The position numbers were made by a program, and so were the translations under genes. The notes beneath the pieces are model-generated. The model was not told the DNA's origin, searched no databases, and was given only the letters and a program-made list of their open reading frames with translations. Positions 1-4,908 of a stretch of DNA of 4,908 nucleotides are shown here, one piece after another. Source of the DNA: a virus (lineage: Duplodnaviria; Heunggongvirae; Uroviricota; Caudoviricetes); IMG/VR virus record IMGVR_UViG_2548876952_000004, positions 1 to 4,908 of that record. One strand, given 5' to 3'. Position 1 is the stretch's first letter. Each line of letters begins with the position of its first letter.

Positions 1-338
1 CCGTTTTCGTCGGTGGTGCCGATGATATTGGAAACGGTCTGCGCGAGTTTCGTTTCTTCGTCGTCGCCGGTGCCGTCTTCCACGCGCACGACAACGGTGA
101 CCGGTTTTGACTGGTCGGCGATAGCCTGCAACGATGCCGCCAGCGTGCCTTTTTTACCGGCCTTTGCAATCGCGCTCTGCACATTGGTAATCAGCACCGG
201 TTTATTGAGGGGAAAGGTTTCCGCATCCGCATCGCTGGCCGTGCAGACCATGCCGACAATGGCAGTGGATACGGTGGAAATGACACGGGTGCCGTCGTTA
301 ATCTCCAGCACCTGCACGCCGTGATGATAGTCACTCAT
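1..338 (-). CDS. FI: Tail sheath protein FI, N-terminal ~112 codons; the gene continues past the window start
   Basis: Minus-strand ATG at 338..336, which I translated by hand as [95 protein letters not shown]..., with no stop before position 1. It matches my recollection of the P2 FI (contractile tail sheath) N-terminus. A GGAG Shine-Dalgarno lies about 8 nt upstream (minus-strand ccacGGAGttaaacggATG). The plus-strand ORF 13..324 in the track is the antisense frame of this gene. Confidence 0.85.
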
Positions 339-435
339 CCGTTTAACTCCGTGGTTAATGGGTGAGTGGTATTTTCTGTTGTGCAGAGCATGAGACGCTA
401 TTTGACCTGGCTGGTCAGTGGATGAAACAACAGAT

Positions 436-458
436 AAAGAAAAGGCGGACAATCCGCC
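436..458 (-). terminator. Possible intrinsic terminator: GC hairpin followed by a T-tract, as read on the minus strand
   Basis: Minus-strand sequence GGCGG-ATTGT-CCGCC (plus 444..458; 5-bp all-GC stem, 5-nt loop) is followed directly by TTTTCTTTAT (plus 443..434). The stem is short and the hairpin lies ~210 bp downstream of the accessory ORF stop, so the assignment is tentative. Confidence 0.3.
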
Positions 459-462
459 CGCC

Positions 463-480
463 TGTCATGATTTGTACACA
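463..480 (-). promoter_or_regulatory. Perfect TGT-N12-ACA dyad; candidate binding site for an Ogr/Delta-type late activator (possible FI late promoter element)
   Basis: Plus 463..480 reads TGT-catgatttgtac-ACA. P2/186 late promoters are known to carry a TGT-N12-ACA dyad centred near -55. The site is ~130 bp upstream of the FI start codon in the correct orientation, but I could not find a convincing -10 element at the expected spacing. Confidence 0.25.
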
Positions 481-525
481 CTCATTTTCCGACTGACAAT
501 TTACATAACCCAAAAGTTATCAAAT

Positions 526-568
526 CTGACAGTCTGCTTTGAGCAAGAAGCGGACATTTGCCTGTCAG
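526..568. repeat. Inverted repeat CTGACAG ... CTGTCAG (7-bp arms, 29-bp spacer)
   Basis: Plus 526..532 ctgacag and plus 562..568 ctgtcag are exact reverse complements. The region sits between the accessory ORF stop and the FI upstream region. Confidence 0.4.
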
Positions 569-668
569 GGTATATGCCGCTCTGCGGTTATTATCCAGAA
601 TCAATAATTCATCTGAGTTGGATTACATATAAAACATAGTTACCCCATGAATAACCATGAGCAGATCA

Positions 669-1262
669 TCAATTATGTAAATCTTTTGTTTCAGGTTTTT
701 TTGGGTGTTGTGACAACAAATGGCTATAGCGTTTAAGCAAAATATTAGAAAGATTAAACTCATTCATGAAGTGTTCTTCTAATAAGTAACCATCAATATC
801 AACTTTAATATCATTACTACTTTTCATCTTCTGTAACGTAGATTTTACACACTCCAGCAGGATGCTTTGCTCATGGTAATAGTCCATAAGAAGAGTAACA
901 TCCTCTTTATCAAGTTTACTTAATTCACTGAAGTAGGCTTTAAAAACTTTATCAGTCTGGTTTAATGCAATCTGTAAGCGAGGCCCTCCTAATGATTTGA
1001 CATTAATGGCAAAAGGCTCGCCAACAAAATGCTCCGAATTTTCGTCAAAGCCAATATTTCTCGTTTTATCAAGAAAAGTGAGAGCGCGATGGTTATTAGC
1101 GATTTCATATGCAAACATTGTTCTGATACTGTCTCTCTCAGCCTCCATGCTTATATCATCACGATGATTCGTATAAAATATATTTCCAATAAAGAGAACC
1201 ATAGCAAGAATCACTGAACTTGCCTCCCAATTAATATTTTTTAATCGTCGCTTAGTAAACAT
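669..1262 (-). CDS. Hypothetical protein, 197 aa, N-terminal membrane anchor; accessory (moron) gene at the G/FI hotspot; function unknown, candidate phage-defence or superinfection-exclusion protein
   Basis: Complete ORF from ATG at 1262..1260 to TGA at 671..669, with an AAGGTG Shine-Dalgarno 6 nt upstream of the ATG. The N-terminus is MFTKRRLKNINWE followed by the hydrophobic stretch ASSVILAMVLFIGNIFYT (aa ~14-31, encoded ~1170..1223), which fits a single-pass N-in membrane anchor with a ~165-aa C-terminal domain. The gene and its flanks are visibly AT-rich compared with the tail genes. I see no Walker A, HxH or other catalytic motif and do not recognise the protein. Confidence 0.6.
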   Translation of the reverse strand: MFTKRRLKNINWEASSVILAMVLFIGNIFYTNHRDDISMEAERDSIRTMFAYEIANNHRALTFLDKTRNIGFDENSEHFVGEPFAINVKSLGGPRLQIALNQTDKVFKAYFSELSKLDKEDVTLLMDYYHEQSILLECVKSTLQKMKSSNDIKVDIDGYLLEEHFMNEFNLSNILLKRYSHLLSQHPKKPETKDLHN

Positions 1263-1408
1263 ACCGCACCTTAATTATCAAAAATATTCCTTCAGTGTTA
1301 TCTGGTTAGCCTAAACCAAGTCATTAAAGTCCGCAGGATATCATATACATAAAATGTATTGATTAGAATTTGCACTAATAAAATAATGCTTTACTAAAAT
1401 CTACTCCA

Positions 1409-1448
1409 GACACAGAGCGGCCTGTCAGATTAGGCTTTACTCTGTGCC
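1409..1448 (-). other. Imperfect nested hairpin downstream of G (possible terminator or RNA structure separating the tail operon from the accessory gene)
   Basis: Plus 1411..1417 cacagag pairs with plus 1440..1446 ctctgtg; an inner pair gcct (1420..1423) / aggc (1432..1435) is also present. On the minus strand it is followed by tctggagtagattttag, which has only a weak T-run. Low confidence. Confidence 0.2.
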
Positions 1449-1483
1449 ATAGATATGTAAGCTCACACCAGAGCTCATACAAC

Positions 1484-2011
1484 TTATTGCGGCATTTCCG
1501 GCCATTCAGGATTTGCAGGATCCACACGACTGACCAGAACGCTGTAACGCTCCCATGCATCCAGTCGGCTACGCTCCTCATCTGTTGCCATATTCAGCCT
1601 GACAGCGCGCTCCAGCGGCACAATCACGGATTCGGCTTCGGAAAGCAAAGTTGCCTTTTGTGATTCTGCCAGTTGCTGCTGTTCGTCTGCCGTATAAATC
1701 CGCTTAATCACGGCACCATCCTTAAACATCCATTTACCTGAGTCATCAGCACGTCGGTTGGCGGTAATATCAGGAACCTCGACAACGCTAAAACCTTCAG
1801 GGTTAAGCGTTGAAGCATCTCTGGTGATGCCGACAATTATATTATTCTCGTCGTAAACAATCTTTATCGTGTCTGCCTGAAAATTACTTACTTCCTCATA
1901 CCAGTTTTTTCCCTCTTCGGACCATAACCAGATAACATCAAAATTTTTTGTCAGTTGATATTGGGCAACAGTTTTTGGATTACCCGCAGTAATATTTTTT
2001 AAATGCTGCAT
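1484..2011 (-). CDS. G: Tail fibre assembly (chaperone) protein G
   Basis: 175-aa [33 protein letters not shown]...[11 protein letters not shown], which matches my recollection of P2 gpG and the Tfa tail-fibre-assembly family. Its start ATG (2011..2009) lies 3 nt after the H stop (2017..2015), with an AGGTG Shine-Dalgarno inside the H 3' end; this tight spacing is typical of an operon. Confidence 0.9.
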
Positions 2012-2014
2012 AAA

Positions 2015-4045
2015 TTACACCTGTGCGACGTTATACCATGTGCCATTGATGTATTTTTGTATTGGTCTGAATACTGCGGGGTCATCACCATCGACTTCAC
2101 CGACAATACCAAGCCCGGTAATTACGTGCCCTGCTTTCTCATACATCACCCCTTTCTGCATGGTCTGGACAACTCGAGTCCCAAGCCGGATATCGCGTAC
2201 ATAACGGGAATCAAAATTACTATAGTTAGATGGTGATACCTGCCCGTTAACAGCAAAAGTGATGCTGTTATCTGTATTTCTCTGACTGTAAAAATGCCAG
2301 CCTGCATCATCACCTAATTCAGCCACCACCGGACGACTTGAGTTTCCCCACAAATTGAATGCGGCTTCCTTCGTGGATGTATTACTGCTGCTGACCGTGA
2401 TTTTTTTCCCGCTACCGGCACGTACTTTGGTACTTGAGACAATATCACCAGTAACACTCAGGCCATGCCCCATTGATACAGCACCCGTGGCATCATTTAT
2501 AATCAGTGGTCTTAAATTATTATAAGTACCTAATCTGTCACCTGATTTAGTCAACATAAAATAAGTGCTGCTGCCATCATTCCTGATAAAGAATCCATAA
2601 TTGCCATAAGCAATGCGCAGACCATTAGCACTGAGTGATGTAATCTCACCTCTTGAACGGAGACCATAAGCGGAGCTGAGTGATAATTCTTCCTGAGCAT
2701 CAGTATTACCAGTCGCCCAGCGAACTACCCCGCCCTGTACTGTTTCATGCCAGATAGTGTCTCCTTCTCCACCACGAAACTTTCTGAGATATTTTTTGCC
2801 GCCTCTGGTGCCTGAACATAAGGCCGTAGACATATAGGCATTCTGGCTTCCGCCATCCTGATTAATCGTTCCGGTCATTGAGTCGCCCTGACGATTCCAG
2901 TCACGACGCCAGCCGGGGGAGTAGCCGTCCCCATGATTAATGTAAGTGAATTGCGCGCTGGTTGTACCGCCACCACTTGATGTTGTCGGCGTGGTCACTC
3001 GGATAGTGATTGCAGATTTAGTTCCCATGACCTCGACGACACAACCAGCCAGGTGGATATCACCACATCCGGTATCCGTAATGATTTTGTTATTTGCATA
3101 TGACCAGGAGCCTTTGCACATCCAGTACGGATGATTAAATGCACCACGGGAATCCAGCCATTCAATAAACTGAGCGGTTGTCCAGTTTCCGGCTTCAGTG
3201 CTCAAAGCGCCGCTATAAGCACGACAGGCACCGATATTTTTCGTGAAGGTATCCTTTCCCGGAATATCCGCACCGTTCTGATCTTTCTGAAGACGTTTTT
3301 CAGCATTGTCATAGGCAGACTTCACTGCTTTTGGCGTTGCCGCGAGGTTTTCAGAATCACTGTTGGTGGCGCTACTGAGCTGGACAAGACCTTTTCGCGC
3401 TGTGGTGGCGTCCTGTGCGGTATATTTCCCGTTAGCCAGGTCATATGCGGCCTTAACCGCTTTCGGCGTTGCAGCCAGTGTTTCAGACGTACTGTTGGTC
3501 GCACTGCTTAACTGAGTAAAACCTTTTGCGGTCAGCGAGGCGTCAGGGTGACGTCGTGACTGTTCGTGCTCTGCAATTTTGTCATCAACGTAATCCTGCG
3601 TCGCCATCACCGTTGTGGTGTCAATGGTCAGCTCCACTGAGGCCACACTGCTGACGATGATGACCATGCGACAGGTCTGCGAACGTCCTGAGCCTTCGGC
3701 AAGGGCTGGCTTATAGCTTTCGGCCATGTTCGCCACGGCAATTAACGTTCCCGCATCATCGTACAGGCCAAGCTCACGCATCCAGAAACCGCCCACCTCC
3801 GGCGGAATAACCAGCTCTGCGATAATATAATTACTGTTTCGTTTGTCCTGGCTGATTTTGTTCAGCGCATGTCGCCAGACTTCATGGATAAGCCCGGTCT
3901 GTCCGGCATCCGGGACAGGCAATTTACCACCGCCATCCCCGACGGCCATCGTGGTAATGTTGACCTTCCGCCCTCCCGGTGCGGTTGCCGCTGCCAGCTT
4001 TGCTGCACCGGCAGTGGTGATAACGGTTTTGAATTTTGTGCTCAT
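2015..4045 (-). CDS. H: Tail fibre protein H
   Basis: 676-aa ORF. The N-terminus MSTKFKTVITTAGAAKLAAATAPGGRKVNITTMAVGDGGGKLPVPDAGQTGLIHEVWRHALNKISQDKRNSNYIIAELVIPPEVGGFWMRELGLYDDAGTLIAVANMAESYKPALAEGSGR... and the C-terminus ...NFDSRYVRDIRLGTRVVQTMQKGVMYEKAGHVITGLGIVGEVDGDDPAVFRPIQKYINGTWYNVAQV both match my recollection of P2 gpH. It contains two copies of a ~32-aa tail-fibre repeat. Length and operon position (I-H-G) agree with P2. Confidence 0.93.
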   Translation of the reverse strand: MSTKFKTVITTAGAAKLAAATAPGGRKVNITTMAVGDGGGKLPVPDAGQTGLIHEVWRHALNKISQDKRNSNYIIAELVIPPEVGGFWMRELGLYDDAGTLIAVANMAESYKPALAEGSGRSQTCRMVIIVSSVASVELTIDTTTVMATQDYVDDKIAEHEQSRRHPDASLTAKGFTQLSSATNSTSETLAATPKAVKAAYDLANGKYTAQDATTARKGLVQLSSATNSDSENLAATPKAVKSAYDNAEKRLQKDQNGADIPGKDTFTKNIGACRAYSGALSTEAGNWTTAQFIEWLDSRGAFNHPYWMCKGSWSYANNKIITDTGCGDIHLAGCVVEVMGTKSAITIRVTTPTTSSGGGTTSAQFTYINHGDGYSPGWRRDWNRQGDSMTGTINQDGGSQNAYMSTALCSGTRGGKKYLRKFRGGEGDTIWHETVQGGVVRWATGNTDAQEELSLSSAYGLRSRGEITSLSANGLRIAYGNYGFFIRNDGSSTYFMLTKSGDRLGTYNNLRPLIINDATGAVSMGHGLSVTGDIVSSTKVRAGSGKKITVSSSNTSTKEAAFNLWGNSSRPVVAELGDDAGWHFYSQRNTDNSITFAVNGQVSPSNYSNFDSRYVRDIRLGTRVVQTMQKGVMYEKAGHVITGLGIVGEVDGDDPAVFRPIQKYINGTWYNVAQV
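3299..3526 (-). repeat. Tandem direct repeat inside H (two copies, period 132 bp / 44 aa) encoding the tail-fibre repeat motif
   Basis: H residues ~174-205 KGFTQLSSATNSTSETLAATPKAVKAAYDLAN and ~218-249 KGLVQLSSATNSDSENLAATPKAVKSAYDNAE. At DNA level, compare plus 3351..3400 cagaatcactgttggtggcgctactgagctggacaagaccttttcgcgc with plus 3483..3530 tcagacgtactgttggtcgcactgcttaactgagtaaaaccttttgcg. Confidence 0.7.
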
Positions 4046-4055
4046 TATTCCTCAC

Positions 4056-4586
4056 TTATCCGGGGTAAACCGTAATTACATCGCCGTCGTAAGCCACACC
4101 ACCGGCGAACAGGTAGCCGGGAATGTCGCGGGAAATGTTCAGGCCAATAAGGTGACGGCTTGCAGGTTTGGCATCAGCAATCAGCCGTTCCATTTCCTGA
4201 TACATTGCCTCTGTGATACCGCTTTCCAGTACACCGATATCAAGCCGGAAGGTGCCGGGCGGGTCACTGGTTTCCCACCACTCCGTCACGTTGATGAGAT
4301 AGCCCAGCGGCTCCACCACACGCCGGATTGCACCTATAGTGCCTTTATGACAGTGGATGAAATAGGCATCGCGGATAACGGCGCGTTTGGTCGCTTCCGG
4401 CCACTTTTCATCCCATCTGTCGACCGAAAACGCCCACGCCAGCCACGGCAGCAGATTTGCCGGGCAGGTGTCCGGGTTCCACAGCTCACGAATACTGACC
4501 GGTGTTTTTTCAATTTCCGCACAGGCTTTTGCGGCGGCGACCTCAAGCGGTGATGAGCCGGTCGGCAGCAGTCGCGAATCACTCAT
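4056..4586 (-). CDS. I: Baseplate assembly protein I
   Basis: 176-aa ORF MSDSRLLPTGSSPLEVAAAKACAEIEKTPVSIRELWNPDTCPANLLPWLAWAFSVDRWDEKWPEATKRAV..., matching my recollection of P2 gpI in sequence and length. It lies between J and H as in P2, and its start overlaps the J stop by 8 nt. Confidence 0.9.
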   Translation of the reverse strand: MSDSRLLPTGSSPLEVAAAKACAEIEKTPVSIRELWNPDTCPANLLPWLAWAFSVDRWDEKWPEATKRAVIRDAYFIHCHKGTIGAIRRVVEPLGYLINVTEWWETSDPPGTFRLDIGVLESGITEAMYQEMERLIADAKPASRHLIGLNISRDIPGYLFAGGVAYDGDVITVYPG

Positions 4587-4908
4587 CCGAGCCTCCGGTC
4601 ACGACGCGGTATTCGGTACAGAAAGACGCCTGCGTACTGTTGAGCACGATGTCGGCCAGTGGTGCGGCCAGCTCGACACGCTGCACGCCTTCCACATGCA
4701 AAGCGGCATAAATGGCAGACAGACGGATGTCGCGCCCCAGCCGGTGCTGTGCCGTGATGTACGCTTCCAGTTTTTTCACGGCGGCAGCGCGTATGGGTTC
4801 GCTTTCGGGACCAGGGTAAAGGTAAAGCGTGGCGTTTATCTGGTATTCAACGATGGCGGCAGACTGCACGGTCACGCGGTCGGCCACCGGCCTGACGTCC
4901 TCGCCATT
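4579..4908 (-). CDS. J: Baseplate assembly protein J, C-terminal ~109 codons; the gene begins beyond the window end
   Basis: The minus-strand frame is open from the window edge (hand translation ...NGEDVRPVADRVTVQSAAIVEYQINATLYLYPGPESEPIRAAAVKKLEAYITAQHRLGRDIRLSAIYAALHVEGVQRVELAAPLADIVLNSTQASFCTEYRVVTGGSDE) to the stop at 4581..4579. The M at 4887 in the ORF track is an in-frame GTG, not the true start. The position immediately upstream of I fits P2 gene order V-W-J-I-H-G. Confidence 0.8.
   Translation of the reverse strand, partial: NGEDVRPVADRVTVQSAAIVEYQINATLYLYPGPESEPIRAAAVKKLEAYITAQHRLGRDIRLSAIYAALHVEGVQRVELAAPLADIVLNSTQASFCTEYRVVTGGSDE

Follow-up and report, generated by a model that had tools for sequence, protein, structure and literature searches.

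What occupies the space between two conserved tail genes of a P2-like phage, and how much of that space is foreign? The question arises in a 4,908-nucleotide stretch of a Caudoviricetes genome (IMG/VR record IMGVR_UViG_2548876952_000004, positions 1 to 4,908; hereafter the window), in which all long open reading frames (ORFs) lie on the minus strand and an AT-rich island at 339-1483 separates the tail fibre assembly gene G from the tail sheath gene FI. An earlier note, made from the sequence alone, had taken this island for a moron inserted between G and FI without disturbing either gene. Here we argue that the island is what at present fills the Z/fun hotspot for accessory genes in a P2-like (Peduovirus) prophage of Escherichia coli, in the form of a hairpin-bounded cassette whose cargo gene we call ORF197, a reading to which we assign a probability of roughly 80%.

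The tail genes of the window share 89-96% identity with P2-like (Peduovirus) phages, and the gene order around the slot, with the accessory position between G and FI, is syntenic with that of P2, Wphi, L-413C and others. Four E. coli strains, RM14723 and PMV-1 among them, have the island itself at 100% identity in chromosomal prophages. The Z/fun hotspot goes back to Nilsson et al. 2004, as cited in PMC9122126, PMC8987985, PMC13586616 and the iLund4u preprint (bioRxiv 10.1101/2024.10.15.618418); the last of these counts Z/fun among two “well-characterised” P2 hotspots, and the Rousset preprint (bioRxiv 10.1101/2021.01.21.427644) cites it as a variable gene set. Since the locus had already been described, the island is a correct re-discovery with imprecise borders: it is ordinary in itself, and its cargo gene is a new, uncharacterised occupant of a known hotspot.

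The compositional contrast from which the island was originally recognised is real and large. G+C content is 36.8% at 339-1483 versus 51.7% in the remaining sequence of the window (binomial z = -10.1), and examination of sliding-window G+C and codon composition found a significant drop, with the lowest-GC stretch of 1145 nucleotides in the whole window starting at 342 and with a GC content at third codon positions of 30.8% in ORF197 (669-1262) versus 60-70% in I and in the parts of FI and J that fall within the window. The picture of flanking tail genes roughly balanced in G+C did not survive measurement, as they range from 45.5% in G through 50% in H, 56.5% in I and 57% in the FI part to 60.6% in the J part, with low-GC patches of 36-39% outside the island at 1801-2100 and 2401-2700. 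A two-boundary likelihood segmentation of G+C prefers 320-2710. Within the island, the two ends (339-522 and 1432-1483) both stand at 44%, and only 559-1395 goes down to 33.9%.

The limits of the foreign DNA were mapped by BLASTN of the window against nine phages, all with different cargo (P2, VB-YPM-4, Wphi, L-413C, pro147, fiAA91-ss, 569R9 and the “Z-region” records P2-EC46 and P2-EC58), together with junction alignments. Homology on the FI side reaches ~547-563 in the panel (522 in pro147), and on the G side it restarts exactly at 1411 in eight of the nine phages (at 1395 in fiAA91-ss), so that the breaks lie well inside the borders first proposed, namely the G stop codon (1484) and the ribosome-binding region of FI. 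In phages carrying unrelated cargo, 339-554 and 1411-1483 are conserved at 88-97% identity. The interior of the cassette (559..1395, minus strand) is variable cargo DNA without homology to P2-like phages with other cargo, and the conserved segment 1432..1483 (minus strand) is P2 backbone 3' of G, outside the cargo. Because these flanks are conserved beside unrelated cargos, ~290 of the 1145 bases originally flagged, about a quarter, belong to the P2 backbone. As judged from the alignments, the foreign unit is a cassette of ~0.9 kb at ~526-1428, between inverted hairpin arms, and not the whole of 339-1483.

The alternative, a single foreign insert reaching from the ribosome-binding site of FI to the stop codon of G, would agree with the start of the lowest-GC stretch and with the lack of structural genes in the interval. 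However, the end segments persist beside unrelated cargo, include annotated elements of the late promoter pF, and have a G+C content between the cargo and backbone values; the alignments with phages of unrelated cargo led us to reject such an insert, which retains hardly any likelihood. What stands of the moron proposal is a foreign, AT-rich, non-structural gene between G and FI, missing from P2 and most P2-like phages, with neither neighbour disturbed; the borders drawn from composition do not. Likewise, the segment is not core P2 sequence throughout, its interior being foreign, whereas 339-522 and 1432-1483 are conserved core. For practical purposes only ~526-1428 would be exchangeable, and 339-522 is late-promoter DNA, neither cargo nor to be disturbed in engineering.

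What marks the ends of the exchangeable unit is a pair of hairpin arms, inverted copies of one another, ~27-36 nucleotides long and each containing an imperfect palindrome. The FI-side or “F-type” arm (523..558, no strand assigned) reads AATCTGACAG, TCTGCTTTGAGCAAGAAGCGGAC, ATT and is an intact imperfect hairpin, folding as DNA with -8.8 kcal/mol (z -2.1); in the form AATCTGACAG-TCTGCTTTGAGCGAGGAGCGGAC-ATT, junction alignments and motif scans find it in all the panel phages except pro147, which lacks this arm, in agreement with its earlier break at 522. The G-side or “G-type” arm (1396..1431, no strand assigned; AAAATCTACTCCAGACACAGAGCGGCCTGTCAGATT) has a conserved outer half and a decayed inner half. 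Its consensus across phages is AATGTCCGCTCTTGGCACAGAGCGGACTGTCAGATT, that is AAT-GTCCGCTCTTGGCACAGAGCGGAC-TGTCAGATT, from which the arm in the window deviates at 8 of 27 positions in fuzzy motif scans; its fold amounts to -2.6 kcal/mol (z +0.7). The inner half (1396-1410) has acquired ~7 substitutions, and therefore the hairpin no longer forms. Identical decay is present in PhiR44_1 and in E. coli MS1494. The arms correspond to features annotated by the depositors of AJ512680 and AJ512683 as “left/right inverted repeat”, the FI-side arm matching the right one. They were recognised only from multi-phage junction alignments: local alignment of the window with itself returned only a 19-nucleotide match with a score of 23 (shuffle mean 14.9, maximum 26). 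P2-EC46 has an additional G-type hairpin (L003, 1611) between its two cargo ORFs, which suggests two cassettes in tandem in the slot. The arms were also considered as intrinsic terminators and rejected as such, no T-run following them. Copies of the cassette outside P2-like phages retain an intact upstream hairpin, and it is a possibility that the decayed G-side arm “locks” the cassette in the slot of the present phage.

The nearest described counterparts are the P2 Z/fun cassettes (Nilsson, Karlsson & Haggard-Ljungquist 2004; AJ512680-AJ512683), which the present cassette resembles in its G-FI position, in the inverted repeats at the junctions, in the AT-richness of the cargo (31-38% G+C in all panel cargos, 33.9% here) and in a content that varies between syntenic phages. 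It differs from them in the decay of the G-side repeat and in its cargo, which has no relationship to fun(Z) or to what EC46, EC58, Wphi, L-413C, pro147, fiAA91-ss and 569R9 carry. ORF197 cargo is absent from the AJ5126xx records in the phage collection, and BLASTP of ORF197 against P2 Fun(Z) gave only E = 6.3, which does not place the two proteins in one family.

Does the cassette move as a unit, and do the arms define that unit? Homologues of ORF197 with 71-72% protein identity reside on the chromosome of a Pantoea sp. (L016), on plasmid CP033467 of Enterobacter cloacae (L017, truncated) and on a plasmid-like contig with ardA (L019). In all three, a G-type hairpin lies upstream and an F-type hairpin downstream of the cargo, and the outer flanks are unrelated; pairwise BLASTN among them yields 89-94% identity that starts inside one hairpin and ends at most ~12 nucleotides from the other. 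Of 5426 E. coli genomes, 201 have the cassette in its P2 context, as do 13 phage records, and within E. coli it occurs solely in that context, each of two queries returning 201 genomes. A synthetic query made of the two outer flanks detected no empty site (flanks no more than ~600 bp apart) in 75 phage records or in 862 E. coli genomes, and therefore the slot is always occupied, with cargo being replaced and not gained or lost. Exchange probably takes place at or within the arms, the junction being constant across unrelated cargos and arm-to-arm copies being present in non-phage replicons. In the mechanism that we propose, recombination at or within the arms would replace one cassette with another; the enzymology of this step is something we infer. 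A sensitive BLASTN of the island against the phage collection also brought up partial matches in 24 records of Stx1a- or Stx2c-converting phages; the total number of records at 60-80% identity was 45.

These properties set the cassette partly apart from morons, a concept reportedly due to Hendrix and Juhala. Like a moron, it is an extra, compositionally deviant and non-essential gene between conserved genes, probably expressed from the prophage; unlike one, it shows no presence/absence polymorphism in the phage records and E. coli genomes searched for an empty site, undergoing replacement instead, and it has defined hairpin ends, while a promoter and terminator of its own are only putative. 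Integron cassettes provide another comparison, being promoter-poor single-gene units with imperfect palindromic sites between them, and small arrays occur here as well (EC46; L045, L141). In contrast to integrons, inspection of the arms and doublets revealed no GTTRRRY/RYYYAAC core sites, there is no intI or other integrase gene beside the slot, and cargo orientation is not fixed, the fun(Z), L-413C and pro147 cargos being inverted relative to ORF197. For these same reasons, attC sites were rejected as an identity for the arms.

To place the arms in a wider context, one genome per species was scanned with TCCGCTNNTNGCACANAGCGGAC, a pattern for which ~4 chance matches were expected. The scan returned at least 120 loci (L020-L139); the taxonomic and structural statements that follow hold among the matches listed. 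About 20 are from Enterobacterales, most of the others are from metagenome-assembled genomes (MAGs) of Xanthobacteraceae/Pseudolabrys with several copies each, and Pseudomonas, Acidobacteriota and Actinomycetota are also represented. Positions left unconstrained by the pattern agree too, with a consensus of A(A/T)(C/T)GTCCGCTNYTGGCACAAAGCGGACAT. P2 flanks or ORF197 homologues accompany none of these 120 hairpin loci. In Enterobacterales the hairpins follow ordinary genes at their 3' side and are often doubled, two inverted copies standing back to back across an 18-nucleotide linker; AT-rich accessory genes lie inside some of the pairs, for example one for a Sel1-repeat protein, or ApeA-HEPN together with SIR2 (example loci are L045, with hairpins at 78/123 and 1013/1058, and L027, 1417..5044). 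Neither Rfam, which holds no family matching the hairpin, nor a literature search by hairpin sequence, which turned up nothing relevant, offered a precedent.

Within E. coli, the hairpin is present in 3645 of 5426 genomes, with a median of one copy and a maximum of five, and 215 copies are on plasmids. In a lambdoid prophage (L140, 2297..4001), hairpins bracket a gene for a 340-residue hypothetical protein, a single-gene segment of 32-39% G+C. In a K-12-type Qin prophage (L143, 2015..3003) they bracket flxA-ydfV beside relBE, at ~42-51% G+C and hence not AT-rich. An integrase-associated island (L141, 1927-5366) contains a set of hairpin-bounded cassettes, and on an E. coli plasmid (L142, 3998) the hairpin stands alone, with no cargo bracketed.

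These observations bear on a rival account, in which the arms are repetitive extragenic palindromic (REP)-like elements, acting as stabilisers or terminators of mRNA, cargo is swapped by ordinary homologous recombination within the conserved genes on either side, and the hairpins play no part as recombination sites. Such elements, with their composite forms (bacterial interspersed mosaic elements, BIMEs, and REPINs), share with the arms a length of ~24-27 nucleotides, imperfect palindromy, an intergenic position 3' of genes, an arrangement in inverted doublets with a short linker and a multi-copy state in some genomes. The account gains from the many Enterobacterales in which the hairpin lies just 3' of arsBC or of LysR, AsnC, MFS or LysE genes, often in BIME- or REPIN-like back-to-back doublets, from the many copies per genome in Xanthobacteraceae MAGs, and from the location of the G-side arm 52 nucleotides past the stop codon of G, where a REP element would typically be expected. 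Several results weigh directly on our own reading here: the G-side arm is decayed in the present cassette, no target-site duplication was seen around the non-P2 copies, no recombinase was found in association with the arms, and hairpins 3' of ordinary chromosomal genes may mean that REP-like elements merely coincide with the junctions.

On the other side stand the homology of the copies in three unrelated non-P2 replicons, which is bounded by the hairpins, the same junction nucleotides for nine unrelated cargos, the internal hairpin of P2-EC46 between its cargo ORFs, and low copy number in E. coli (1-5 per genome), where, of four copies sampled, two fall in lambdoid prophages, one in an integrase-associated island and one on a plasmid, with cargo bracketed by all three that are chromosomal, AT-rich in two cases. 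Also unlike REP families, for which this is unusual, the arms have a near-identical sequence across phyla, and that sequence is not known to resemble the E. coli REP or palindromic unit (PU) sequences. Taken together, we regard the REP account as possible, on balance doubtful, and retain hairpin-bounded exchange as the preferred reading of the slot.

A broader proposal, which we consider unlikely and offer as speculation, is that the hairpins are a sequence-conserved family at the ends of AT-rich accessory cassettes in unrelated mobile elements, and possibly the substrate of a dedicated enzyme. Cassette ends of this kind may be represented by those in P2-like phages, in Qin-type lambdoid prophages and in the integrase island, and by the ORF197 cassettes of the plasmids and the Pantoea chromosome; in addition, REPIN-like doublets of the hairpin are scattered through Enterobacterales and through chromosomes of Xanthobacteraceae. 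The hairpins could be either REP-like elements that happen to be used by recombination or sites of a dedicated enzyme. If they were the substrate of an HUH/RAYT-like or other structure-specific recombinase, they would belong to an undescribed, transposase-free system of cassette exchange, which could account for the swapping of defence genes at phage hotspots, a process whose mechanism is still to be explained according to a 2026 NAR survey. Hairpin ends at the cargo boundaries of several mobile elements offer a testable route to the rapid replacement of defence cassettes at hotspots.

What, then, does the present cassette carry? ORF197 (669..1262, minus strand, from the ORF list) encodes 197 residues in the same orientation as the tail genes, with a predicted N-terminal transmembrane helix and an all-alpha C-terminal domain. 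It matches phrog_3829, a PHROG family of unknown function, end to end (7e-134), and the RefSeq name of its family is “lysogenic conversion protein”. It has no match in Pfam or NCBIfam, and no family of the PADLOC-DB 2.0.0 defence models at E <= 1. The family comprises 38 clusters at 90% identity, every source-named one of which comes from Enterobacterales, and an exhaustive profile search retrieved only 30 representatives among 1.84 billion proteins; all of them belong to the same small family, and therefore no remote link emerged. The ratio of nonsynonymous to synonymous substitution rates (dN/dS) is 0.20-0.29 when P2 copies are compared with each other and 0.10-0.16 when the comparison is with distant ones, and a set of 19 homologues, similar in length throughout, gives a good alignment; by these measures ORF197 is a real gene under purifying selection.

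Hydropathy and charge reveal a single hydrophobic segment at ~12-32, preceded by a positive N-terminus (KRRLK) and followed by an acidic segment, and the AlphaFold2 (AF2) model places a helix at 12-31 in front of a helical bundle, at a pLDDT of 66.5. The protein is probably a bitopic inner-membrane protein with one transmembrane helix, an N-terminus that is probably cytoplasmic because of its positive charge, and an acidic helical-bundle domain of ~165 residues that is probably periplasmic.

As to expression, a Shine-Dalgarno sequence, AAGGTG (1267..1272, minus strand), can be read four nucleotides upstream of the ORF197 ATG, and the block TTTTTGATAATTAAGG(A/T)G is kept upstream of the homologues in L016 and L019. 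Further upstream lies a putative cassette promoter (1335..1362, minus strand), with TCAATA as the -35 element (1362..1357), a spacing of 16 nucleotides and TG-n-TATCCT as an extended -10 (-10 at 1340..1335); alignment shows this -35/extended -10-like block to be common to the window and the non-P2 copies of the cassette. A promoter consensus scan counts against it, having returned fewer sites than shuffled sequences and lent no statistical support. Given a good Shine-Dalgarno sequence and the candidate promoter, ORF197 could be expressed from the prophage. Directly 3' of its stop codon, a weak AT-rich hairpin followed by a T-run (635..659, minus strand; -2.7 kcal/mol, z -2.6) is possibly the cassette's own terminator.

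The case for a function of ORF197 is contextual. In the same G-FI slot, VB-YPM-4 carries PD-T7-1 (L002 1313-2662; 1.5e-156), fiAA91-ss carries PDC-S51 (L010 840-1946; 2.5e-105), and P2-EC46 carries a Lit-like protein and an HNH-effector-like protein (L003 294-1295 and 1819-2925). P2 Fun(Z), from the same slot, is annotated as blocking T5 (NC_001895), and PADLOC has no model for it. Half of the sampled alternative occupants match defence models. As the slot holds validated defence genes in sister phages, ORF197 is a cheap anti-phage candidate, compact, uncharacterised and widespread: of 5426 complete E. coli genomes 201 carry it, and plasmids and P4-like satellites have it too.

Membrane proteins of the prophage superinfection-exclusion class include T4 Sp/Imm, HK97 gp15 and lactococcal Sie2009. 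ORF197 resembles them in being small and prophage-encoded and, in its predicted topology, in being anchored to the membrane at its N-terminus with a domain outside the cytoplasm; it differs in having neither sequence similarity nor specific fold similarity to any of them. By analogy, and at somewhat less than even odds, we suggest that ORF197 is an envelope-level phage-exclusion factor that would block genome entry of other phages, on account of its N-in single-pass architecture, its extracytoplasmic domain and its genomic position. A published experiment tells to some degree against this suggestion. Phage P2_AC1 carries the ORF197 cassette at 97% identity, and PMC9122126 reports that the protection of a P2_AC1 lysogen against lambda and LF82_P8 is reproduced by a TIR system of the other hotspot; ORF197 therefore has no separable phenotype on that small panel.

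Two further functions compete with phage exclusion. The protein might serve in abortive infection or as a toxic membrane effector, depolarising or permeabilising the membrane upon infection. In keeping with this, it crosses the membrane once, and its gene stands alone in slots of the defence type in several mobile elements. Defence systems commonly employ small transmembrane effectors. Transmembrane effectors are described in PMC9122126. Against this function, ORF197 lacks both a partner gene and a recognisable sensor domain, and the positive-inside rule puts its bulk outside the cytoplasm, a poor fit with sensing intracellular phage components; we find this function improbable.

Alternatively, ORF197 could be a lysogenic-conversion factor apart from defence, concerned with envelope physiology, colonisation or host virulence. 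The RefSeq family name says as much, bioRxiv 10.1101/2021.01.21.427644 relays that Nilsson et al. thought Z/fun cargo might affect virulence, and some hairpin-bounded cargos are not defence genes, for example the Sel1-repeat protein and an ars operon. No test was found behind the RefSeq name, however, and the defence matches among alternative occupants point the other way, as do published surveys: PMC13586616 assigns 16% of P2 defence systems to a hotspot downstream of gpL, which it equates with the classical P2 tail-gene hotspot. This conversion role, too, seems unlikely to us, and phage exclusion remains the function that we favour.

In other mobile elements the homologues of ORF197 are always solo genes in accessory slots, with contexts that include a methylase and DUF4928 pair in Salmonella and plasmid loci near VapC or ArdA. 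In Pantoea ananatis (L012 4001-4600) and Kosakonia (L015 4001-4591), homologues with 64% identity lie directly after a P4-type primase (Zn_Ribbon_Prim/Toprim_3/D5_N/DUF5906), and AlpA, Phage_ASH and DUF5375 nearby identify these loci as P4-like satellites. No hairpin arms are detectable around these two satellite homologues. In the recent survey PMC13586616, P2 and P4 are said almost never to share defence genes.

The DNA on the FI side of the cassette (339..522, minus strand; 44% G+C) is P2 backbone with the late promoter region of the F operon, identified by positional homology to features of NC_001895 and conserved across the nine phages. Positions transferred from the annotated P2 genome put the F-operon transcription start at ~362-364 and the activator site at ~407-435, where a TGT-N12-CCA element is found at 429..412. 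Directly upstream of the activator site, a terminator scan and folding detect, on the minus strand, a conserved GC-rich hairpin of the terminator type with a T-run after it (463..443; -7.6 kcal/mol, z -3.2), which appears well placed to halt transcription of G or of the cargo ahead of the late promoter. The Ogr-dependent late promoter of the FI operon would in this way be insulated from whatever occupies the slot. A sub-threshold Rfam match to the enterobacterial small RNA STnc630 (24 bits versus a gathering score of 55; 408-524, minus strand) extends over this hairpin. Two small plus-strand ORFs (362-496 and 418-639), which several phage records list as “hypothetical proteins” (FIG00643520, phrog_11095), look like over-calls, because they overlap this conserved regulatory DNA.

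The remaining genes of the window are all on the minus strand and were assigned by Pfam. The 5' part of the tail sheath gene FI (3..338, with its ATG at 338..336; Gp18_domIII_N, 1.1e-14) is 90-96% identical in nucleotide sequence to FI of P2-like phages. On the other side of the slot follow G (1484..2011; Caudo_TAP, 1e-34), the tail fibre gene H (2015-4045), I (4056-4586) and the 3' part of the baseplate gene J (4579-4908). Low G+C (36-39%) also marks G in its 5' half and H at its 3' end, with 39% in H at 2401-2700, and 2390-3320 of H has no BLASTN match to H of P2 but does match VB-YPM-4. On this evidence, G and the receptor-binding end of the tail fibre make up a second mosaic module beside the cargo slot.

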